From Naegleria gruberi (lineage: Eukaryota), in assembly GCA_000004985.1 (NCBI GenBank), contig GG738884.1: 64,000 nucleotides of DNA; one strand, given 5' to 3'. Position numbers and translations under genes: made by a program. The notes under the pieces were generated by a model. It was not told the DNA's origin and ran no database searches. It worked only from the letters and a program-made list of their open reading frames with translations. Below, in pieces: positions 2,841 through 56,382 of the stretch; position 1 is the first letter of the stretch; each line of letters opens with the position of its first letter.

Positions 2841-3302
2841 ATGCAACAATTATGTTGGGATGAATTGATTAACATTTCCTCTTTTCTTCCTCTTGGTGAT
2901 TTGCTGAATTCCTTCCGTTTGGTAAATAGGGAATTTCTCTCTCTTTTCCGAGAGTTGGAATTGAGTAGGAATTTTTGGATGAACCTATACAAGAGTTTCA
3001 TCTCATCCCGAATTGATTTATATAATGATTTAATTAATGAGAGTTTGGAAATGAGGGGGAGAATACTGCATTCATGTAAGGAAAAAAGGAATGGAGGGAA
3101 AGGCTTGGGAATTTTCATATCAAATCAAAAACTTGCTAATGGAATTATGAGAGAAATGTTGCATAGTTATGATTCTTATCATAATGGATGGAAATGGTGT
3201 ACTGATAATAGAGATTGGTGCTATGGAAAACCATTCATCCCCAGATTTTTCCTTTCAGTCCTTTATTTCTCAACAATCATCATAATCAGCATACCAATTT
3301 GA
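2841..3302 (+). CDS. small F-box-like protein (153 aa)
   Basis: ATG at 2841. The N-terminus WDELINISSFLPLGDLLNSFRLVNREF fits the F-box consensus. Single ORF. Confidence 0.35.
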   Translation: MQQLCWDELINISSFLPLGDLLNSFRLVNREFLSLFRELELSRNFWMNLYKSFISSRIDLYNDLINESLEMRGRILHSCKEKRNGGKGLGIFISNQKLANGIMREMLHSYDSYHNGWKWCTDNRDWCYGKPFIPRFFLSVLYFSTIIIISIPI

Positions 3303-3948
3303 ACATGCTTATTATCAAAATAATAAGATGAATTGTCACTAGTTATTCGAAACAGAGCAACCAGCTCATTAGATCTTGAAAATTAATGATCTGGCCAATT
3401 AATACAAAAGGAAGTAAAAGTAGCTTTCTTTGTTGATTGAAGAAACCACAAAAGAGCGCAATTCTCTATCTTTATACCTGTCATTTCGATCAAATGTCGT
3501 AACGGTAATAATTTTCACAATAAAAAATGAAACTAACTGTTTCCATCATTGAGTGCAAGAATCTAATAGTTGGGGACCTAATAACCAACCTTGCCGATCC
3601 CTATGTAGTACGTTAATTTCTTTTATTGTTATTCGAAAGTAGTTTACGGAAACATTTCTAACGAACGCAAATCATCCCAACACCTTTTTTCTTCCATTAA
3701 ATTATTACCATCATCATCAAATCGTCAACTTTCTAATAATCATTATCGGATTCTAATAGATTTGTACCATCAATGCTCCAGCACAAGAAATTAGAGAAGA
3801 AGAAAAAGTTCTACCATCACCCTCAGCAGTCATTTCCACTCACAAAACACTCGCCGATAAAGAAGGTGGAGTTATTGGTTCTGCCTATGGTTCATTCGCA
3901 AGTTTACAACATTTAAATACTTTACAAAATCCTTTACTAAGTAATACA

Positions 3949-42213: not shown

Positions 42214-43077
42214 TTAATTCTTGTATGGATTGAAACCTTTGCCTGCTCTAGGTATTGAGCTAGCAACTATTCTAGGATTATGTTCCAAGAAGCGCATGAA
42301 ATTATGTTTATCCACATAAGCAGCTTCTGCTGTAATATCCATCAAGTGATTCCATTTCTTTCCTTTGATTCCAACAAAGATATAGTCACCCTTTCTCTTC
42401 AAATGTTTCATTGAGTTTTCTGATACTTTGCTAGCAACATCCTCAGTCAAAAAGAGATTATATTTCAAATTTTCCATGGAGTTTTGTGGAATATTAATGT
42501 GATCTACTGGGACTATAGTATCCTTATAATTTCCCCATCCAAATTTAGCTGTAACAATTCTGAGAGTTTTCTCATCAATAAGTCCAAATTCCAAAATATT
42601 ATGTCTTGCATAATAAGCAATACCAGCAATAACACCAACAGCTGCCAATCCATATCCAAGTCCAATCAATATTTTAGTTGTCAATGATGCTTCCTCTTTG
42701 TTGCCATGTTCATCAAGTTTTACCATAGTCATTGTAAAATAGGCCAATAATGAAAGCGTTACAGCATTAATCATTGAAGCAATAAAGGCAAACTTGAAAA
42801 ACCTAGCCTTTGGATTACGATAAAGAAGAATATAATTATTAGGCACTGGCTCTTGATTTTTAGGAGGTGTTATAAGTGATTTTACATCTACAGTACTATC
42901 ATCAGCTTTGGTTTGTTGTTGATGTTGAATAATTGGCACTTTGCTATTTAATTGAGTACTAATATGAAAACTTCTAGTAACACCATTCCGAGCAAGAATT
43001 AATAATGTTGATGATGGCGATGATGAAATTGTATGTGTCTTTCTCAAAGAAGAACCCGATGAAAGCAATCTTTGCAT
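42214..43077 (-). CDS. mitochondrial-presequence protein with a two-helix transmembrane hairpin (possibly TMEM70/TMEM186/TMEM223-like)
   Basis: ATG at 43077. The N-terminus MQRLLSSGSSLRKTHTISSSP...RSFHIS looks like a presequence. The hydrophobic hairpin is FKFAFIASMINAVTLSLLAYFTM ... ILIGLGYGLAAVGVIAGIAYYA, followed by a soluble domain of about 150 aa. The family assignment is tentative. Confidence 0.4.
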   Translation of the reverse strand: MQRLLSSGSSLRKTHTISSSPSSTLLILARNGVTRSFHISTQLNSKVPIIQHQQQTKADDSTVDVKSLITPPKNQEPVPNNYILLYRNPKARFFKFAFIASMINAVTLSLLAYFTMTMVKLDEHGNKEEASLTTKILIGLGYGLAAVGVIAGIAYYARHNILEFGLIDEKTLRIVTAKFGWGNYKDTIVPVDHINIPQNSMENLKYNLFLTEDVASKVSENSMKHLKRKGDYIFVGIKGKKWNHLMDITAEAAYVDKHNFMRFLEHNPRIVASSIPRAGKGFNPYKN

Positions 43078-43570: not shown

Positions 43571-45017
43571 TTATTGATTCTGGTTTTTTATTTTCTTTTG
43601 GAGGGAAGTTAGTTTTCTCCTCAACAGTAACACATCATTGTTGAAACCTTCAATATCAAGAGTTCTTCGTTTTGCCAACTCTTTGTATTTCTTGTGGAGT
43701 TTTTGCATTTTCATTTCCATCTTTTTAGTTTTGAGATTGTACTCCTCCTTTTTGGCAGCCAATTGATCTTGTAAATGCATGATATCATTCTCTTTCATGA
43801 TGGTTTGCTCTCTGAAATATTTGGCATATTCTTCAGTTTGTTCTCTCGCATTACTAATGAGAAGATGGGCTTCTTCTTGAGATCTCTCCTTCAGTTTGTC
43901 AATTTGTTTTCTAAGGAAAATATTCTCTTGTTTGAGTTTTTCAATATTTTCTCCTTGTTTTCTGATTTCAGTTTTGAGATTGTGGGTTGTGACGAAATAT
44001 TCTCTATTACTGATATTGAGTTTTTTGTGACAATCTTCATAATCTCTTTGTAATTTGAGAATTGTTGCTTTATCACGCTCTCTTCTCTTTTCTTCCTCTT
44101 CAATCATTATCATTCGTTCCTTCATAAGGGATTCTTCCTTTTCCCTTGAGAGTTTGAGATGTTCATCGAGTTTAGCTTGTAAAGATTCCACTTGTAGTAA
44201 TAATGTGTCTGTTTTTTCATTTGGAATAATAATTGTTCTCAAAATTCTTGAAGGTTGTTGCTGTTGAGCAAAGTTAGTATTTGTACAGACTTTAGGTTTA
44301 ACTTGTTGATATTTAGTATTGTTTGCGGCTCTGTTGTCGCTTGAGCTTTTAATGTATTCTTCTATACAGGTTTCCTTATTAGAATAATTTTGTATATTTT
44401 CTTTTTTCGATTCGTTATTATTGACCTTACTGGTCTTTGTATTGAGGACATATTTTGTTATTTGGTCTGGACGACAATCTTTAAAATAGGTCACTTCCTG
44501 CGTCACTGGTTGTGTGAGTGCAAGCAAGTCTCTTATTTTCTTTCTGTCCTCCATTTCTTGAACTGTTGAAAAGGTTGATGATTAATTTCATTCAGAATAC
44601 ACTTACTTTTGAGAGCATCATTTTGATGTTGCAAATGCATTGAATGTTCTCTTTCGTCGAAGATATGAAGTTGTGCACCGGAGAGAGCCCTCCTAAGAGC
44701 ATCAATTTCATCTTCTCTCCTTCTCAGTTCCCACTCTTGATCGTGAAACTTTTGATATTGTATTTGTATATCGTTCATCTTTCGACACATGTCCTCCCGT
44801 TCCTTCTCCATTTCAGCTGAATAACAAAGAATATATTAAGAATGTGTATTTGTGAATACGTACCCACTTTCTTTTTATAAAAATCCATCGTGTTATCAAT
44901 GGCAGGATCTACTGGTTGTGTTCCTAACATCATTAAGGTTGCTTGATTGTTCAAATTCATCACTTGAGAAGAGGAAATTCCCTGTGGTGATGATGAAGGC
45001 GGGTTTCCTTGACTCAT
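43571..45017 (-). CDS. coiled-coil protein (451 aa), three exons
   Basis: Exons 45017..44864, 44816..44607 and 44562..43571, totalling 1356 nt (452 codons). The introns are 44863..44817 (47 nt, GTACGT...TATTCAG) and 44606..44563 (44 nt, GTAAGT...TCAACAG). It is heptad-rich (LQAKLDEHLKLSREKEESLMKERMIMIEEEEKRRE...). No named family recognised. Confidence 0.65.
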
Positions 45018-50571: not shown

Positions 50572-50970
50572 TTATTGCTTTGAGTGTGCCAGCAATGCAT
50601 CAACCCAAGAACACAACTTTTCTGCAACCATTGAAATATTGCCATAACTATTCTCCAAAATTCCTTGATGATTATTTACAAAAATTGTGGCCTTCTCTAA
50701 GGTTTCCTTAGATACAGACTCGATAGCAACAATTCTCGATCTAATATCCACACTTCCAGTAAGTTCTCTCATTATGTCTTTCCAATCATATAAACCCTCC
50801 TCTTCAGTGGCTATGTTCTTTTTACTCTCCAACAAGATCATCACAAGGGAAAACATGATTGGCAATTTTGCTGGAGGTCTGCAGAATGACATCATTTCAT
50901 TAAATCCGTGTCTCTCAAGTTTTTGAACATTGGAGCGTGCTTGATCTAATCTTTCCCTTGTTGAAGACAT
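50572..50970 (-). CDS. small protein (132 aa) resembling the segment at the base of the dynein heavy chain stalk (KPP..VKLVMEAVCILLG...DW...GLCSWV pattern); paralog A
   Basis: ATG at 50970, single exon. FCRPPAKLPIMFSLVMILLESKK...YDWKDIMRELT...AEKLCSWVDALLAHS lines up motif by motif with the dynein heavy chain region just N-terminal to coiled-coil 1 of the stalk. Confidence 0.5.
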   Translation of the reverse strand: MSSTRERLDQARSNVQKLERHGFNEMMSFCRPPAKLPIMFSLVMILLESKKNIATEEEGLYDWKDIMRELTGSVDIRSRIVAIESVSKETLEKATIFVNNHQGILENSYGNISMVAEKLCSWVDALLAHSKQ

Positions 50971-51209
50971 TTTTTTAAAATTGAAACTTTAAGGTTTTGA
51001 GAGATTGAAAAAAACTGTAGAAATACTCATTAACAAAGTTCATCAGTAAAGAATTAATTGTAGTGGATATAAGATAAGGAAATAGTATATGAATGGAATG
51101 CAGATACCTTCAAGTGATGTAGATGAAAGGTTTAGAGTATACTCTAAAGTAAACTGTCTTTGTTTGTGAATATTCCAAATGCATCTAATCGACATAAAGT
51201 GTTGTTGGC

Positions 51210-51641
51210 TCAATTTTGAGTTGATTCTACATGATTAATCAAAGCGAGTGACCACGAAACCAATAAATAGGCAATGGATAAAGAGCATTTTCCCAAAGAA
51301 TTTTCATTAAAAGCATCTGGATGACGATTAATAAAGATTTTTGCCTTATCAAGAGTGTCTTTGGAGATTGTGTCCATCTTTGTTATCGAATCAATAAGAT
51401 CAGAATTATTCAATCTCTTAACAATTTCCAACCATTCATAAATTTGATCATTAGGAAGTGACTCCTTCCTTGGTTGTGTTTCGAGAAGAATGAGCACCAA
51501 ACTTAACATTTCAATAAGCTTTGTAGGAGGACATTTAAAAGCCATCAATTCCGAAAAATCACTTCTTCTGCACTGAGATTTAATTGAGGCTCGTGCCTGT
51601 TCAAGTTTTTCAAATGATGTTGATGAAGATGAAAGTGACAT
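51210..51641 (-). CDS. paralog B of the dynein-stalk-base-like small protein (143 aa)
   Basis: ATG at 51641. FKCPPTKLIEMLSLVLILLETQ...YEWLEIVKRLN...LSIAYLLVSWSLALINHV. It is colinear with 50572..50970 and about 240 bp upstream on the same strand. Confidence 0.5.
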   Translation of the reverse strand: MSLSSSSTSFEKLEQARASIKSQCRRSDFSELMAFKCPPTKLIEMLSLVLILLETQPRKESLPNDQIYEWLEIVKRLNNSDLIDSITKMDTISKDTLDKAKIFINRHPDAFNENSLGKCSLSIAYLLVSWSLALINHVESTQN

Positions 51642-52073
51642 TTTTTTCTTGTTCTTTTTATGAACCTAAAACTACAGTGGCCCTTGAGTCTCAAACTCAT
51701 CAAATATGAACTCTGGTTGTATTTTTCTATTAATTTAGGTTGACATTCAATAATATACGACTTTACAATCTCAATTCGATTTAGCTCATGCTCTGATAGT
51801 ACAACCGAGATTGAGTGATTAATGCTCACTTCCATCCATCATTTGTGCATGCTCTTTTAATACGCACGCATTTATTGTTTTTTATTGCTGTACACGCTTG
51901 AGCGGCATAATCAAAAAACAAGAATCAAAAAAAAAGGCGTATTTGCTACCTCTGCCACATCCAAACCCATCATCACATTCCGTTCCTTGTGTGTTGTTGA
52001 CTAATTATTTATTGTCTCCCATTGTGTTACCTCTTCTTCTTTCACTCACTTACCATAATTGAAATACTTTTCA

Positions 52074-52919
52074 ATGTCATCAGTAACTAGCAATACTTCC
52101 ACAAGTACCTCTACCAACGCTACTAATAGTAGAGAATCATCAAGAATCATAAAGGCCAAGAATTTGAGTCAACATGAAGCCTTGTTAGAAACAGAAGAAC
52201 ATTATGAAACCTTCTTGGATGCTAGCAAGGACAGTAAATTGCACTCAGATAAAGTATGGATAAAGCCTGACCCAAGCATTTTCAAGTCGGAAAATGTAAA
52301 GAATCTTGTTGAACAATTCCAACAACAGCATCAATCGTCAGATGACGAATATTCATTAACTCTCCAATTATTCCCTGATACCACCACCTGTCCTAATTCT
52401 CATGATGATTTAGTCTTGTCAGCTGTTATTCACACTCTCCAAGAATTGAAAAGATCCCACGTTGACCTTTTACTCATCAAAGTTTCCAATTCAAAGCATT
52501 TGTTGAAATATTGGGCCGATATGGAATTACTTGTTGAAAATAACCTTGTCAAACAAATTGGTATTTGTGATATTGAAGTTAATGATCTCGAGCACTTGGT
52601 ATCACAAGTTAAAATTATGCCAAATGTTGTTCAAGTCAACCTTGCCTCCTATGAATCCATTGAATCTATTAGTGAATTATCACAATATTGTACAGGACAT
52701 TCAATTAAGGTTTTAACTGGTTCCAGAGGCTCATTCTCTGATTTTGCAAATGCTGGCGCTAAAGCCGCAGGTTCAAAAGATATTCAATTGAATTGGGTTG
52801 TCAGATATTCCCTCCTCTCTAGACCAACATCAGTAGTCTCAGATATGGGATTCCTGGTCAAATTGGATGGAACTGAAAAATGTACATGCATTTCAAATCA
52901 AGACCAAAATTCTCTGTAA
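52074..52919 (+). CDS. GCLM: glutamate-cysteine ligase modifier (regulatory) subunit GCLM-like protein (AKR-like fold)
   Basis: ORF 52059..52919; the first ATG is at 52074. YWADMELLVENNLVKQIGICDIEVNDLEHL, VKIMPNVVQVNLAS and LNWVVRYSLLSR match the conserved blocks of GCLM as I recall them (YWEELENLVQSKKIVAIGTSDLDKTQLEQL; VKPNSNQVNLAS; LWLLRYSVIVKSRG). Confidence 0.65.
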   Translation: MSSVTSNTSTSTSTNATNSRESSRIIKAKNLSQHEALLETEEHYETFLDASKDSKLHSDKVWIKPDPSIFKSENVKNLVEQFQQQHQSSDDEYSLTLQLFPDTTTCPNSHDDLVLSAVIHTLQELKRSHVDLLLIKVSNSKHLLKYWADMELLVENNLVKQIGICDIEVNDLEHLVSQVKIMPNVVQVNLASYESIESISELSQYCTGHSIKVLTGSRGSFSDFANAGAKAAGSKDIQLNWVVRYSLLSRPTSVVSDMGFLVKLDGTEKCTCISNQDQNSL

Positions 52920-53945: not shown

Positions 53946-54731
53946 TCAAAACTTAAATTAACCTCCACACAAAAGAATACACTCCAACAATTCCGTAATA
54001 TTACATCAACATCCGAGAAGGTTGCCACAGATTTCCTCAAAAAGTCAAACTGGGAATTGGATAGAGCTGTTGATGATTATTACAATAGTACTAATGGTGG
54101 TTTGAGCTCTGTCACCTTGTCTAAAGAAATGGAAGAAGCCTTTGAAAAATACAAACAAGCCAGTAACAATACAAACGAAGACACTATCAACAATGTTACT
54201 CTTGATGGTATTTTGGAACTTGCCAAAGACTTGGAAACTGATCCAGAATCAGATCCTCTCATCTTTGTTTTATTCTACAAACTTGGTTGCAAGTCGGCCT
54301 ATAATATTACTCCTGATGAATGGAAGCAAGGTATGGGTGGTGATTTAAAGGTCACAAAGATGGATCAATTGAAGAAGAAGATTAGTCAAGTCAAGTCTGA
54401 TATTTACAATGATAATCAACTATTCAAAGACTTTTATGAATATGTTTTTGATTACTCTTTGGATGAAGGAGCAAAGACTGTTCCACCAGATATTGCTATC
54501 GGTCAATGGAAATTGATTATGAAGGGAAAGTACAAATTCTTGGATGCTTGGTGTGAATATATAGAAAAGGTCTTCAAGAAGGCTATTACAGCTGACACTT
54601 GGAAACTCTTCTTGGACTTTACCAAGAATTATGCCACTGGTGACTATAAGGATTACGATGCTGATGCAGGTGCTTGGCCAGTTGCTATTGATGATTTCTG
54701 TGTTTGGCATCAAGAAAAGTTGAAGAAATAA
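53946..54731 (+). CDS. DCN1-like (DCUN1D) cullin-neddylation co-E3; the 5' micro-exon with the ATG was not found
   Basis: The frame is open from 53946 after the acceptor-like AAATAG. The UBA-like N-terminus is SKLKLTSTQKNTLQQFRNITSTSEKVATDFLKKSNWELDRAVDDYY. The PONY domain has DAWCEYIEKVFKKAITADTWKLFLDFT. Stop at 54731. Confidence 0.7.
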   Translation, partial: SKLKLTSTQKNTLQQFRNITSTSEKVATDFLKKSNWELDRAVDDYYNSTNGGLSSVTLSKEMEEAFEKYKQASNNTNEDTINNVTLDGILELAKDLETDPESDPLIFVLFYKLGCKSAYNITPDEWKQGMGGDLKVTKMDQLKKKISQVKSDIYNDNQLFKDFYEYVFDYSLDEGAKTVPPDIAIGQWKLIMKGKYKFLDAWCEYIEKVFKKAITADTWKLFLDFTKNYATGDYKDYDADAGAWPVAIDDFCVWHQEKLKK

Positions 54732-55407: not shown

Positions 55408-56382
55408 TTAAATGGTATTGAATAACAACCCAAATAATTTTAAAATAATTAGTAATATTAATAGTACATTATTGATTTTCAATTTGGAGGAATTACTAGC
55501 AAGTTTATCCTGATTAATTCTCGAATTTTCAAAAATCCAATCTTTATAATTGTAAACTTTTGTAAAGACACTCCTTTTCCAAATCTTTCCACAACTATTG
55601 GTTGGACCAAAACTTGTCACACCAATTAATGATTTGTCGTTGCAAGTGTTTCCAAGTTGAATTAATGGGCCACCAGAATCACCTTGACTTTGAATTTTAA
55701 AATAGTTCTGAAATGATACAACATCAAAAACCTACCATGATGAATGACCATTACCCTTTCCAACACACCATTGATCTCTTTGCTCATTGAGCTCTAACCC
55801 CATTGAAGTACAGTCACTGATATTTGTAATATATGTAGGAGTTTCATGCAGTATTCTTTCATCATTGATTGTATCATATTCATTAGTGAATCCCCATCCA
55901 GCTATCATCAAACGAGATGTATTAGACCATGGTTGATTATAGTCTGATATCACTATAGAAAGATTAAGCATTGGAGTTTTAGTGTAGATAATTGCAAGGT
56001 CATTGATCATTTTAAAAGGAGAATATTCTGGGTGAACGATAATACGGTCAATTTCAATATTTTCACATTTGTTGTTTGTTAATTTTTGAAATTGATCCTG
56101 GCAATTTGAAAGATTCGTTTCGCCCAATACGATGGCAGTATTATCAATGTCGATTGGCGTTGTAAGGGCATCCCCTTTAAAACAACAGTGTGCTGCTGTT
56201 AGCACGTGATAATCCGAAATAATGGTTCCTGCACAGTAATGCATTCCATTCTTTTGAAGGGATACCAAAAAAGGATAATTACTTTTATCAGCCACAGTTC
56301 CTCCCATAATATTATTCGATTGATACGAAAAACACACCAAACACAACATCACAAAGCAAATCCACACAATCAATTGAGACAT
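55408..56382 (-). CDS. secreted trypsin-like (S1) serine protease, two exons
   Basis: Exons 56382..55736 and 55687..55408. The intron 55735..55688 (48 nt) runs GTAGGT...TTCAAAG (phase 2) and rebuilds ...GNGHSCQGDSGGPL. It has a signal peptide MSQLIVWICFVMLCLVCFS and the catalytic triad contexts TAAHC, NDLAII and GDSGGP. Confidence 0.75.

Follow-up and report, generated by a model that had tools for sequence, protein, structure and literature searches.

The locus lies within a 64,000-nucleotide stretch of Naegleria gruberi DNA (contig GG738884.1), referred to here as the window. It contains two adjacent genes, NgA and NgB:

50572..50970, minus strand: NgA (NAEGRDRAFT_70457, XP_002674462.1, D2VND5), single-exon CDS including the stop codon, 132 aa
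50971..51209, no strand: spacer between NgA and NgB, 239 bp, AT-rich, read from the sequence
51210..51641, minus strand: NgB (NAEGRDRAFT_70458, XP_002674463.1, D2VND6), single-exon CDS including the stop codon, 143 aa

Both genes are ATG-to-stop open reading frames with an intact frame, the ends of which coincide exactly with the borders of the domain described below. An A-run (aaaaaaaATG) directly precedes each start codon. The products are annotated as "predicted protein" only. BLASTP aligned the two proteins colinearly with 40% identity over 128 aa (E 1e-27), a divergence that marks them as old paralogs. A sequence-only reading of this locus had described two tandem single-exon paralogs on the minus strand, ~240 bp apart; open reading frames, spacer length and identity bear this out. 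Every motif quoted in that reading was recovered in NgA/NgB (KCPPTKLIEMLSLVLILLE / CRPPAKLPIMFSLVMILLE, YEW / YDW, KLCSWVDAL / LLVSWSLAL). The two were also correctly taken to be separate, stand-alone small genes: apart from NgA and NgB, the 64-kb window contains no microtubule-binding domain (MTBD), stalk, AAA+ or other dynein sequence, and the flanking genes are unrelated.

A possible third MTBD copy at 43894-44103 (minus strand) scored E 3e-5 with a two-sequence profile. This match, in an alternative frame within a K/E-rich coiled-coil ORF, was rejected as compositional because the signal vanished with a 29-sequence profile (E 3.1).

The relationship of NgA and NgB to dynein was analyzed at the sequence level. 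Upon phmmer searches with NgA or NgB against all PDB sequences, dynein heavy chains were the sole matches at E < 0.1, and the matched region was always the MTBD. These single-sequence E-values are marginal (0.001-0.07); 2rr7, 'Microtubule Binding Domain of Dynein-c', for instance, matched at E 0.006 over residues 21-136. The closest PDB sequences were those of axonemal dyneins (DHC9/inner-arm c, outer-arm alpha and gamma, DNAH2 and DNAH6). When 1.84 billion proteins were searched exhaustively with HMMER, 14 further proteins were retrieved at E < 1e-3. The domain is present in all 14, and 13 also match Pfam MT (PF12777), the exception being P0014. One of the 14 (P0008, HMMER E 1.9e-5) is a fragment of a genuine dynein, with Pfam MT positions 1-340 of 344 plus AAA_9. 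The remaining 13 are motor-less (E 5e-10 to 6e-4), and 12 of them match Pfam MT at positions ~90-210. The nearest neighbour was inconsistent, with NgB scoring best against the genuine dynein fragment and NgA against domain 2 of a Pharyngomonas protein. Comparison of the Naegleria pair with 27 related domains by hhalign gave a probability of 99.35% (E 6e-21, residues 4-142), and the alignments to MTBDs run end to end and in register. Identity to any dynein MTBD is 15-22%.

Comparison with Pfam MT, which the sequence-only reading had proposed as a check, was negative for both proteins (hmmscan, E up to 10), the only match being a sub-threshold DUF5903 (E 0.11). The Pfam MT model does match the intermediate motor-less proteins (1e-9 to 1e-54). 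The dynein link of NgA/NgB emerges with custom profiles and structure only, and lies below Pfam detection. The shared block corresponds to positions ~90-210 of the 344 in the Pfam MT profile and to residues ~3284-3418 of mouse DYNC1H1, the range of the PDB 'microtubule binding domain' constructs. By this alignment, NgA and NgB represent the globular MTBD at the distal stalk tip, between coiled-coil 1 (CC1) and coiled-coil 2 (CC2).

We next consider the fold. An AF2 model of NgB reached a pLDDT of 89.4 and a pTM of 0.83, a confidence that relies on an alignment containing MTBD-like domains. A control prediction from the two paralogs alone (pLDDT 53.6) returned nothing significant in Foldseek, though MTBDs ranked 1, 2 and 5; this control is uninformative, not contradictory. 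With the confident model, the top 35 Foldseek matches in the PDB were all dynein MTBDs (TM 0.57-0.78), and the matches that followed had a TM of ~0.2. Upon superposition, 130-136 of the 143 NgB residues overlay stalk+MTBD structures. The layout of NgB is as follows:

51573..51632, minus strand: N-terminal helix, residues 4-23, corresponding to the final ~3 heptads of coiled-coil 1 in the stalk
51279..51572, minus strand: globular core, residues 24-121, secondary structure from the model
51216..51278, minus strand: H6 and short coiled-coil 2 stub, residues 122-142, model helix H122-142

The first segment is helical in the model (H4-23) and aligns with the CC1 end of mouse DYNC1H1. The core comprises helices H1 (26-33), H2 (40-52), H3 (70-77), H4 (82-88) and H5 (94-106), with a PP hinge at residues 38-39 (window 51525-51530) and an H2-H3 loop of ~17 residues. 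The last segment carries the S..A..L..W signature (A124, L127, W130), aligns with mouse H6/CC2 and ends one residue short of the C-terminus. Thus, NgB is over its whole length one dynein-MTBD-like domain. NgA is built in the same way from a single domain, its PP hinge falling at residues 32-33 (window 50872-50877). Each protein consists of H1-H6 plus ~20-residue, short antiparallel stubs of CC1 and CC2, and nothing else. In the model, the six-helix globule sits between antiparallel CC1 and CC2 helices as in a dynein MTBD; with 132 and 143 aa, neither protein has the long stalk or the AAA+ ring of the whole motor.

PDB matches, HMMER, hhalign, Foldseek and superposition together identify the similarity to part of the dynein heavy chain, suspected from motifs, as true homology. 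We conclude with high confidence that NgA and NgB are homologous to the dynein heavy chain MTBD and have the same fold. The sequence-only reading had placed the block at the stalk base, just before CC1. This was wrong: the block is the MTBD itself, at the stalk tip. The CH domain, named there as a refuting alternative, is matched neither in sequence nor in fold. Could the resemblance be fortuitous, NgA and NgB belonging to an unrelated small helical family with a few dynein-like motifs? The marginal PDB E-values and the negative Pfam MT result would fit this explanation, but it is effectively refuted by four independent kinds of search, in which every significant or near-significant match was a dynein MTBD or Pfam-MT-positive, by the end-to-end register of the alignments and by the abrupt drop to noise where the dynein matches end.

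The pattern of conservation bears on whether the genes are functional. Both paralogs have all of the signature residues E31, P38, P39, L52, W70, L77, S120, A124, L127 and W130 (NgB numbering), and their identity is 62% in H2 and H5 versus 23% in loops. In a second N. gruberi-like strain (metagenome), both ORFs are intact with 97-99% nucleotide identity, and the spacer is 97% conserved. The strains differ by 2 and 6 codons (pN/pS ~0.3; with so few events, the ratio cannot be given weight). Protein searches started from NgB or from the alignment of 29 sequences returned NgB itself only, as the word index fails to reach distant relatives, and retrieved no orthologue from other species. A metagenome scan for relatives gave 600 pattern matches and 0 confirmed cases. 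No record was found of contigs encoding the exact NgA or NgB proteins or P0005. Literature searches on stand-alone or MTBD-like proteins, PF12777 and the NgA/NgB gene and protein accessions found nothing relevant, including no report of expression, localisation or binding that names either protein.

The lack of retrieved orthologues in protein and metagenome searches, the bare "predicted protein" annotation, the silence of the literature and the loss of part of the conserved functional residues (see below) are all features expected of non-functional relics: either the decaying remains of an old duplication of part of a dynein heavy chain gene, or ORFs that are never expressed and were predicted by automatic annotation. 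However, two copies at 40% identity are both still open, with frames that end at the domain borders. Core and signature residues were kept while loops drifted, both genes are intact in the second strain, and the flanks hold unrelated genes and no dynein-like sequence. We therefore regard relics as very unlikely.

To assess the potential for microtubule binding, we compared the residues at tubulin-contact positions. The equivalent of mouse K3299 is Arg in both NgA and NgB, so that basic character is kept. In contrast to dynein, the equivalent of mouse R3306 in H1 (NgB residue 33) is Met in both proteins, the position being Lys or Arg in 25 of the 27 related domains. At the tubulin-contact position R3337 in H3 (NgB residue 74), Val is found in NgB and Met in NgA (Lys/Arg in 17 of 27). 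The equivalent of R3382 is Lys in NgB and Asn in NgA. In addition to the H6 Lys, NgB retains Arg-Arg at the start of H1. The net charge of the three contact segments, compared across 30 domains, was lowest in NgA and was +1 for genuine dynein versus +2 for NgB; this measure of the microtubule-facing segments does not separate genuine dynein from the Naegleria proteins. Since two basic contact positions are replaced in both paralogs, lattice binding is probably weaker than, or retuned from, that of the dynein MTBD. With more basic positions kept, NgB appears to be the better candidate binder.

The missing near-invariant basic residue of H1 and the missing basic contact of H3 could also mean that the MTBD fold is re-used here as a protein-protein module, NgA and NgB then belonging, off the lattice, to an axonemal or basal-body complex (or another one) as a subunit or adaptor. 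The best-kept surface helix is indeed H5 (62% identity; SK-TL-KA-IF-N-H), while the helices that contact the lattice are H1, H3 and H6. A parallel is offered by the MTBD-like domain of RSP2, which may work in this way. The sequence kinship of NgA and NgB, however, is with dynein MTBDs and the motor-less repeat proteins, and RSP2 showed no similarity to them in any sequence search. Moreover, the Arg-Arg and the H6 Lys of NgB are retained, and ICMAP2 of Toxoplasma provides a non-motor copy of the fold that is on the lattice. A purely protein-protein role is unlikely.

The most likely function of NgA and NgB is that of a small passive microtubule-lattice binder. We assign a probability of roughly 0.5 to the reading that both are free-standing, single-domain dynein MTBD homologues acting as passive lattice binders, and consider microtubule binding as such to be evenly balanced or slightly short of that. 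With the face formed by H1, H3 and H6, the proteins would dock on the outside of the tubulin lattice, on dynein's own site or close to it. In the absence of the long stalk and the AAA+ ring, ATP could not drive the shifts in helix registry by which a dynein MTBD alternates between strong and weak binding, and NgA and NgB would behave as passive small microtubule-associated proteins (MAPs). Bound to one Naegleria array, such as the flagellate cytoskeleton or the mitotic spindle, they could mark, stabilise or occupy motor landing sites, and the strongly conserved H5 surface may recruit partners.

The sequence-only reading had favoured regulators that mimic or compete with a dynein surface. As the piece is the MTBD itself, one would first look to the tubulin lattice for a partner and not to a dynein surface. 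A mimic or decoy could nevertheless titrate MTBD binders, or compete for dynein's landing site, and so tune motor activity in flagellate differentiation. One such binder is the outer-arm light chain LC1, known to bind the MTBD of an outer-arm heavy chain (6l4p; PMC4642857, PMC10205576). In favour of this explanation, the axonemal dyneins are the closest PDB sequence matches and H5 is strongly conserved between the paralogs. With only 15-22% identity to dynein MTBDs, on the other hand, a surface specific to one partner has probably not survived, and competition on the lattice requires a microtubule affinity that the loss of contact residues makes doubtful. Overall, this role appears very unlikely indeed.

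The dynein MTBD has been studied almost exclusively in its place in a 4,000-residue motor, as a foot gated by ATP; NgA and NgB are a natural counterpart, in the form of two diverged paralogs, of the isolated-MTBD constructs engineered by structural biologists. Naegleria assembles its whole microtubule cytoskeleton de novo, with distinct tubulin sets serving mitosis and flagella (PMC10802493). If NgA and NgB bind microtubules, they constitute a new class of small MAPs with dynein's footprint and a simple system for studying MTBD behaviour without registry control. Together with the protist multi-MTBD proteins and ICMAP2, they would then suggest that the MTBD is a transferable module, which, if true, bears on the origin of dynein's track-binding tip. 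If they do not bind, they exemplify repurposing of the MTBD fold. Either way, two "predicted proteins" gain a testable annotation.

A more far-reaching and distinctly unlikely proposal is that the MTBD is an autonomous ancient module, of which NgA and NgB are minimal forms that gate motor access to the array of one tubulin set. The module would occur in Discoba (Naegleria, Pharyngomonas), CRuMs (Diphylleia) and alveolates (dinoflagellates and possibly Toxoplasma ICMAP2). NgA and NgB would occupy the dynein/kinesin landing site independently of ATP, and the changes in their contact residues would tune them to one of two divergent tubulin sets (flagellate versus mitotic).

How do NgA and NgB compare with known systems? 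They share with the dynein heavy chain the helix order (CC1 end, H1-H6, CC2 start), the E-x-K/R motif of H1 (with Met at its basic position), the PP hinge, the H3 Trp and the H6 S..A..LC.W signature; the intermediate length of the H2-H3 loop is shared with axonemal dyneins. Solved dynein MTBDs include 3ERR, 5AYH and 6RZB (cytoplasmic dynein-1), 2RR7 (Chlamydomonas DHC9), 8I3J (DNAH1) and 6L4P (outer-arm gamma). Unlike dynein, with its stalk helices of ~100 residues, AAA+ ring, linker and tail, NgA and NgB have none of these four elements, and their polypeptides end ~20 residues beyond the globule on either side. The affinity of the dynein MTBD is gated by ATP-driven registry sliding, which is impossible in NgA and NgB.

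RSP2 (T. brucei 9E5C chain 2e; Chlamydomonas 7JRJ chain I), a radial-spoke subunit that is not known to bind the lattice, resembles NgA and NgB far less than do the dynein MTBDs.

Contrary to the sequence-only reading, which knew of no such free-standing proteins, other protists also have proteins without a motor that carry 1-9 MTBD-like domains each, a scattered group without a name. They include EP00761_P010313 of Pharyngomonas kirbyi, a heterolobosean like Naegleria (3 MTBD-like domains), EP00002_P001838 of Diphylleia rotans (2 domains, no AAA+ module), EP00933_P031441 of Yihiella yeosuensis (3 domains, no AAA+ module) as well as MMETSP dinoflagellate-type transcripts and a 1568-aa protein with 9 repeats. 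Like NgA and NgB, the repeat proteins consist of MTBD-like globules without any AAA+ module. They differ in that each polypeptide strings together 2-9 domains through linkers of 30-50 residues, and nearly all are Pfam MT-positive, whereas NgA and NgB have one domain per gene and are missed by Pfam. The tandem Naegleria genes are split by a stop codon and a spacer, so that several domains do not come to lie in one polypeptide. Tandem single-domain MTBD genes are also present in L003. The beads-on-a-string proteins of Pharyngomonas, Diphylleia, dinoflagellates and one further eukaryote have a MAP-like layout. Given these motor-less copies in other protists, the MTBD appears to serve as a building block in its own right outside the motor.

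The globular domain of Toxoplasma gondii ICMAP2 (TGME49_224700; PDB 9YA2 chain L) has the same fold as NgA and NgB, at 11% identity. By cryo-EM, this domain, ~10% of a protein of 1,678 aa, sits on the outside of the intraconoidal microtubule with 8-nm periodicity, and ICMAP2, bound in dimeric form between two protofilaments, cross-links two microtubules (PMC12819142). The authors of that study do not call the domain dynein-like (PMC12819142). With the ICMAP2 domain on the microtubule outside, lattice binding by a non-motor MTBD fold has a precedent.

NgA and NgB are two small genes lying in tandem on the minus strand, in a window with a G+C content of ~33%:

50572-50970, minus strand: NgA, ATG to stop, 132 aa (NAEGRDRAFT_70457 / XP_002674462.1)
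51210-51641, minus strand: NgB, ATG to stop, 143 aa (NAEGRDRAFT_70458 / XP_002674463.1)

The genes are separated by 239 bp, and an A-run immediately precedes both start codons. The 143-aa product of NgB is 100% identical to an N. gruberi 'predicted protein'. NgA and NgB share 40% identity (E 1e-27) and align colinearly over their entire length. The sequence-only reading had reported both ORFs at exactly these coordinates, as a colinear pair carrying a set of quoted motifs, every one of which was found; its observation at the sequence level is thus confirmed.

When either protein was compared with all PDB sequences, only dynein heavy chains scored below E 0.1, in a single region. NgB matched 2rr7 ('Microtubule Binding Domain of Dynein-c', a 155-residue NMR construct; E 0.006, over residues 21-136) as well as positions 3055-3175 of the Chlamydomonas outer-arm alpha chain, and NgA matched axonemal chains of a trypanosomatid, human and Tetrahymena at equivalent positions. 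The list was unchanged with a combined NgA+NgB profile. In proteins recognized by Pfam, the homologous stretch covers positions ~90-210 of the 344 of PF12777 (Pfam MT), in the middle of the stalk model. Our numbering reference was the mouse DYNC1H1 sequence, identical to the PDB MTBD constructs 3j1t, 5ayh and 3wuq; the stretch spans 3284-3418 in mouse numbering (3286-3420 in the full-length PDB DYNC1H1 chains of 4,646 aa). The mid-model position and the identity to MTBD constructs locate the block in the globular microtubule-binding domain, or MTBD, at the stalk tip, between CC1 and CC2. The dynein homology proposed earlier holds, but the proposed location at the stalk base, before CC1, does not.

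Pfam MT itself detected neither NgA nor NgB. Profile-profile comparison (hhalign) of the pair with an alignment of 27 MTBD-like domains gave a probability of 99.35% (E 6e-21), end to end over residues 4-142. An exhaustive HMMER search with the two-sequence profile against 1.84 billion representative proteins (E < 1e-3) yielded 16 proteins: the two paralogs, P0008 and 13 others of 255-1320 aa. P0008 (E 1.9e-5, one domain) is a genuine dynein fragment, covering PF12777 positions 1-340 followed by AAA_9, with its MTBD at residues 96-234. Twelve of the 13 others match Pfam MT only over ~65-255, i.e. the globule with short flanks, most of them in 2-5 separate copies; the remaining protein, P0014, has two domains matching the Naegleria profile and no Pfam MT match. 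The 29-sequence alignment matched every dynein class in the PDB (E 1e-22 to 1e-37). NgA and NgB very probably share homology and fold with the dynein MTBD.

An AlphaFold2 model of NgB built with the 29-sequence alignment (mean pLDDT 89.4, pTM 0.83) contains helices at residues 4-23, 26-33, 40-52, 70-77, 82-88, 94-106 and 122-142. In a Foldseek search against the PDB, the first 35 matches were all dynein MTBDs (TM 0.57-0.78 over ~138 of 143 residues), after which TM fell to ~0.2. A control model from the two paralogs alone had unchanged helix boundaries, but a pLDDT of 53.6 and no significant fold match. Since the input alignment includes MTBD-like domains and the paralog-only control is weak, the fold backs the sequence evidence without counting as an independent line.

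Each protein consists only of the MTBD globule (H1-H6) with ~20 residues of CC1 and ~20 residues of H6/CC2. The family signature is kept in both (H1 Glu, PP hinge, H3 Trp, H6 S..A..L..W). The paralogs are 62% identical in H2 and H5, 50% in H1 and 23% in the loops, a pattern indicative of a constrained folded domain rather than decay. Both genes are intact in a strain 97-99% identical in metagenome ERZ929261. NgB differs there by two codons (1 synonymous, 1 non-synonymous) and NgA by six (2 and 4, respectively); pN/pS is ~0.3 for each gene, a value based on so few events that it should be given no weight. In this strain, the NgB contig (L002) stops 40 bp past the NgB stop codon, at window position 51170, and the NgA contig (L001) opens with 82 nt (1-82) unmatched in the window (compare window ~51167-51250). 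Either the assembly is broken here or this strain has an insertion of its own between the two genes.

Beyond these two genes, the window has no MTBD, stalk or AAA+ dynein sequence. The neighbors are unrelated, one being a 346-aa ORF without Pfam family and four others, with no relation to dynein or microtubules, being listed here together with a coiled-coil locus:

42214-43077, minus strand: TMEM70-family gene
43571-44811, minus strand: K/E-rich coiled-coil protein, two ORFs of 327 aa and 92 aa that overlap, no Pfam family
52059-52919, plus strand: aldo/keto-reductase-like gene (weak match)
54057-54731, plus strand: DCN1-like cullin-binding gene
55732-56382, minus strand: trypsin-like protease gene

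A weak match of the two-sequence profile at 43894-44103, considered as a third copy, was rejected: it lies in an alternative frame of the coiled-coil gene and is due to composition.

The motor-less MTBD proteins are encoded by genuine genes and are not pieces of dynein. Complete ORFs with three MTBD-like domains are present in Pharyngomonas kirbyi, also a heterolobosean (457 aa), and in the dinoflagellate Yihiella (771 aa); a 386-aa protein of Diphylleia rotans has two, and further relatives occur among MMETSP transcripts. A 294-kb contig carries another instance of tandem motor-less MTBD genes (L003, 8001-13436), with three short PF12777-positive genes of 340, 255 and 762 aa. A 207-aa antisense ORF is repeated between the genes of this array. 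P0018 is encoded by a single 4.7-kb ORF (L004, 8001-12707; 1568 aa) with nine near-identical 173-residue MTBD-like repeats, with ordinary eukaryotic genes around it on a contig of 1.36 Mb; P0003, a shorter variant, has an N-terminal Hemingway/CFAP97 match. By score, NgA and NgB lack a consistent nearest neighbor: the top score of NgB was with the genuine dynein fragment (35.7 bits) and that of NgA with Pharyngomonas domain 2 (34.9 bits). In origin, the pair may be an ancient module or one that escaped from a dynein gene.

In mouse dynein, K3298 and R3382 are contact residues (PMC4987762), and K3299 and R3337 face beta-tubulin D427 and D163, respectively (Lacey et al. 2019). Placed on NgA and NgB by alignment, K3299 corresponds to Arg in both and R3382 to Lys in NgB and Asn in NgA. 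The R3337 equivalent is Val in NgB and Met in NgA (Lys/Arg in 17 of 27 related domains). The equivalent of R3306 in H1, presumably a tubulin contact but documented by the sequence data for its conservation only, is Met in both (Lys/Arg in mouse and 25 of 27 related domains). A crude net charge over the three contact segments is +2 for NgB and -1 for NgA (lowest, tied with two other domains), but is not decisive, as the genuine dynein fragment has +1. That both paralogs lack two of the conserved basic positions, and NgA a third, speaks for weakened or retuned binding.

Dynein sets its microtubule affinity by sliding the CC1/CC2 registry. NgA and NgB, MTBD homologues that stand alone with neither stalk nor motor, have no part able to do so and would act as passive small MAPs, docking via H1, H3 and H6 at or near the dynein site on the tubulin lattice. 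We give MTBD homologues acting as lattice binders a probability of roughly 0.5; microtubule binding as such is close to an even proposition, if anything slightly below. The lost basic positions, together with RSP2, a radial spoke protein with an MTBD-like domain, leave room for a purely protein-protein role, which is less probable. By analogy, ICMAP2, a Toxoplasma microtubule protein with an MTBD-like fold, and the MAP-like tandem layout of the relatives favor lattice binding. In Naegleria, the tubulins differ between mitotic and flagellate arrays, as for the most part do the microtubule-binding proteins, and induction of cytoplasmic dynein is confined to differentiation (PMC10802493), so the expression profile of NgA and NgB would be very informative.

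We found no account in the open-access papers searched of stand-alone or non-motor dynein-MTBD proteins, nor of these two genes. The MTBD fold and family are well known; new are a motor-less, single-domain, tandemly duplicated form missed by Pfam, and its setting in a previously unrecognized scatter of motor-less MTBD proteins.
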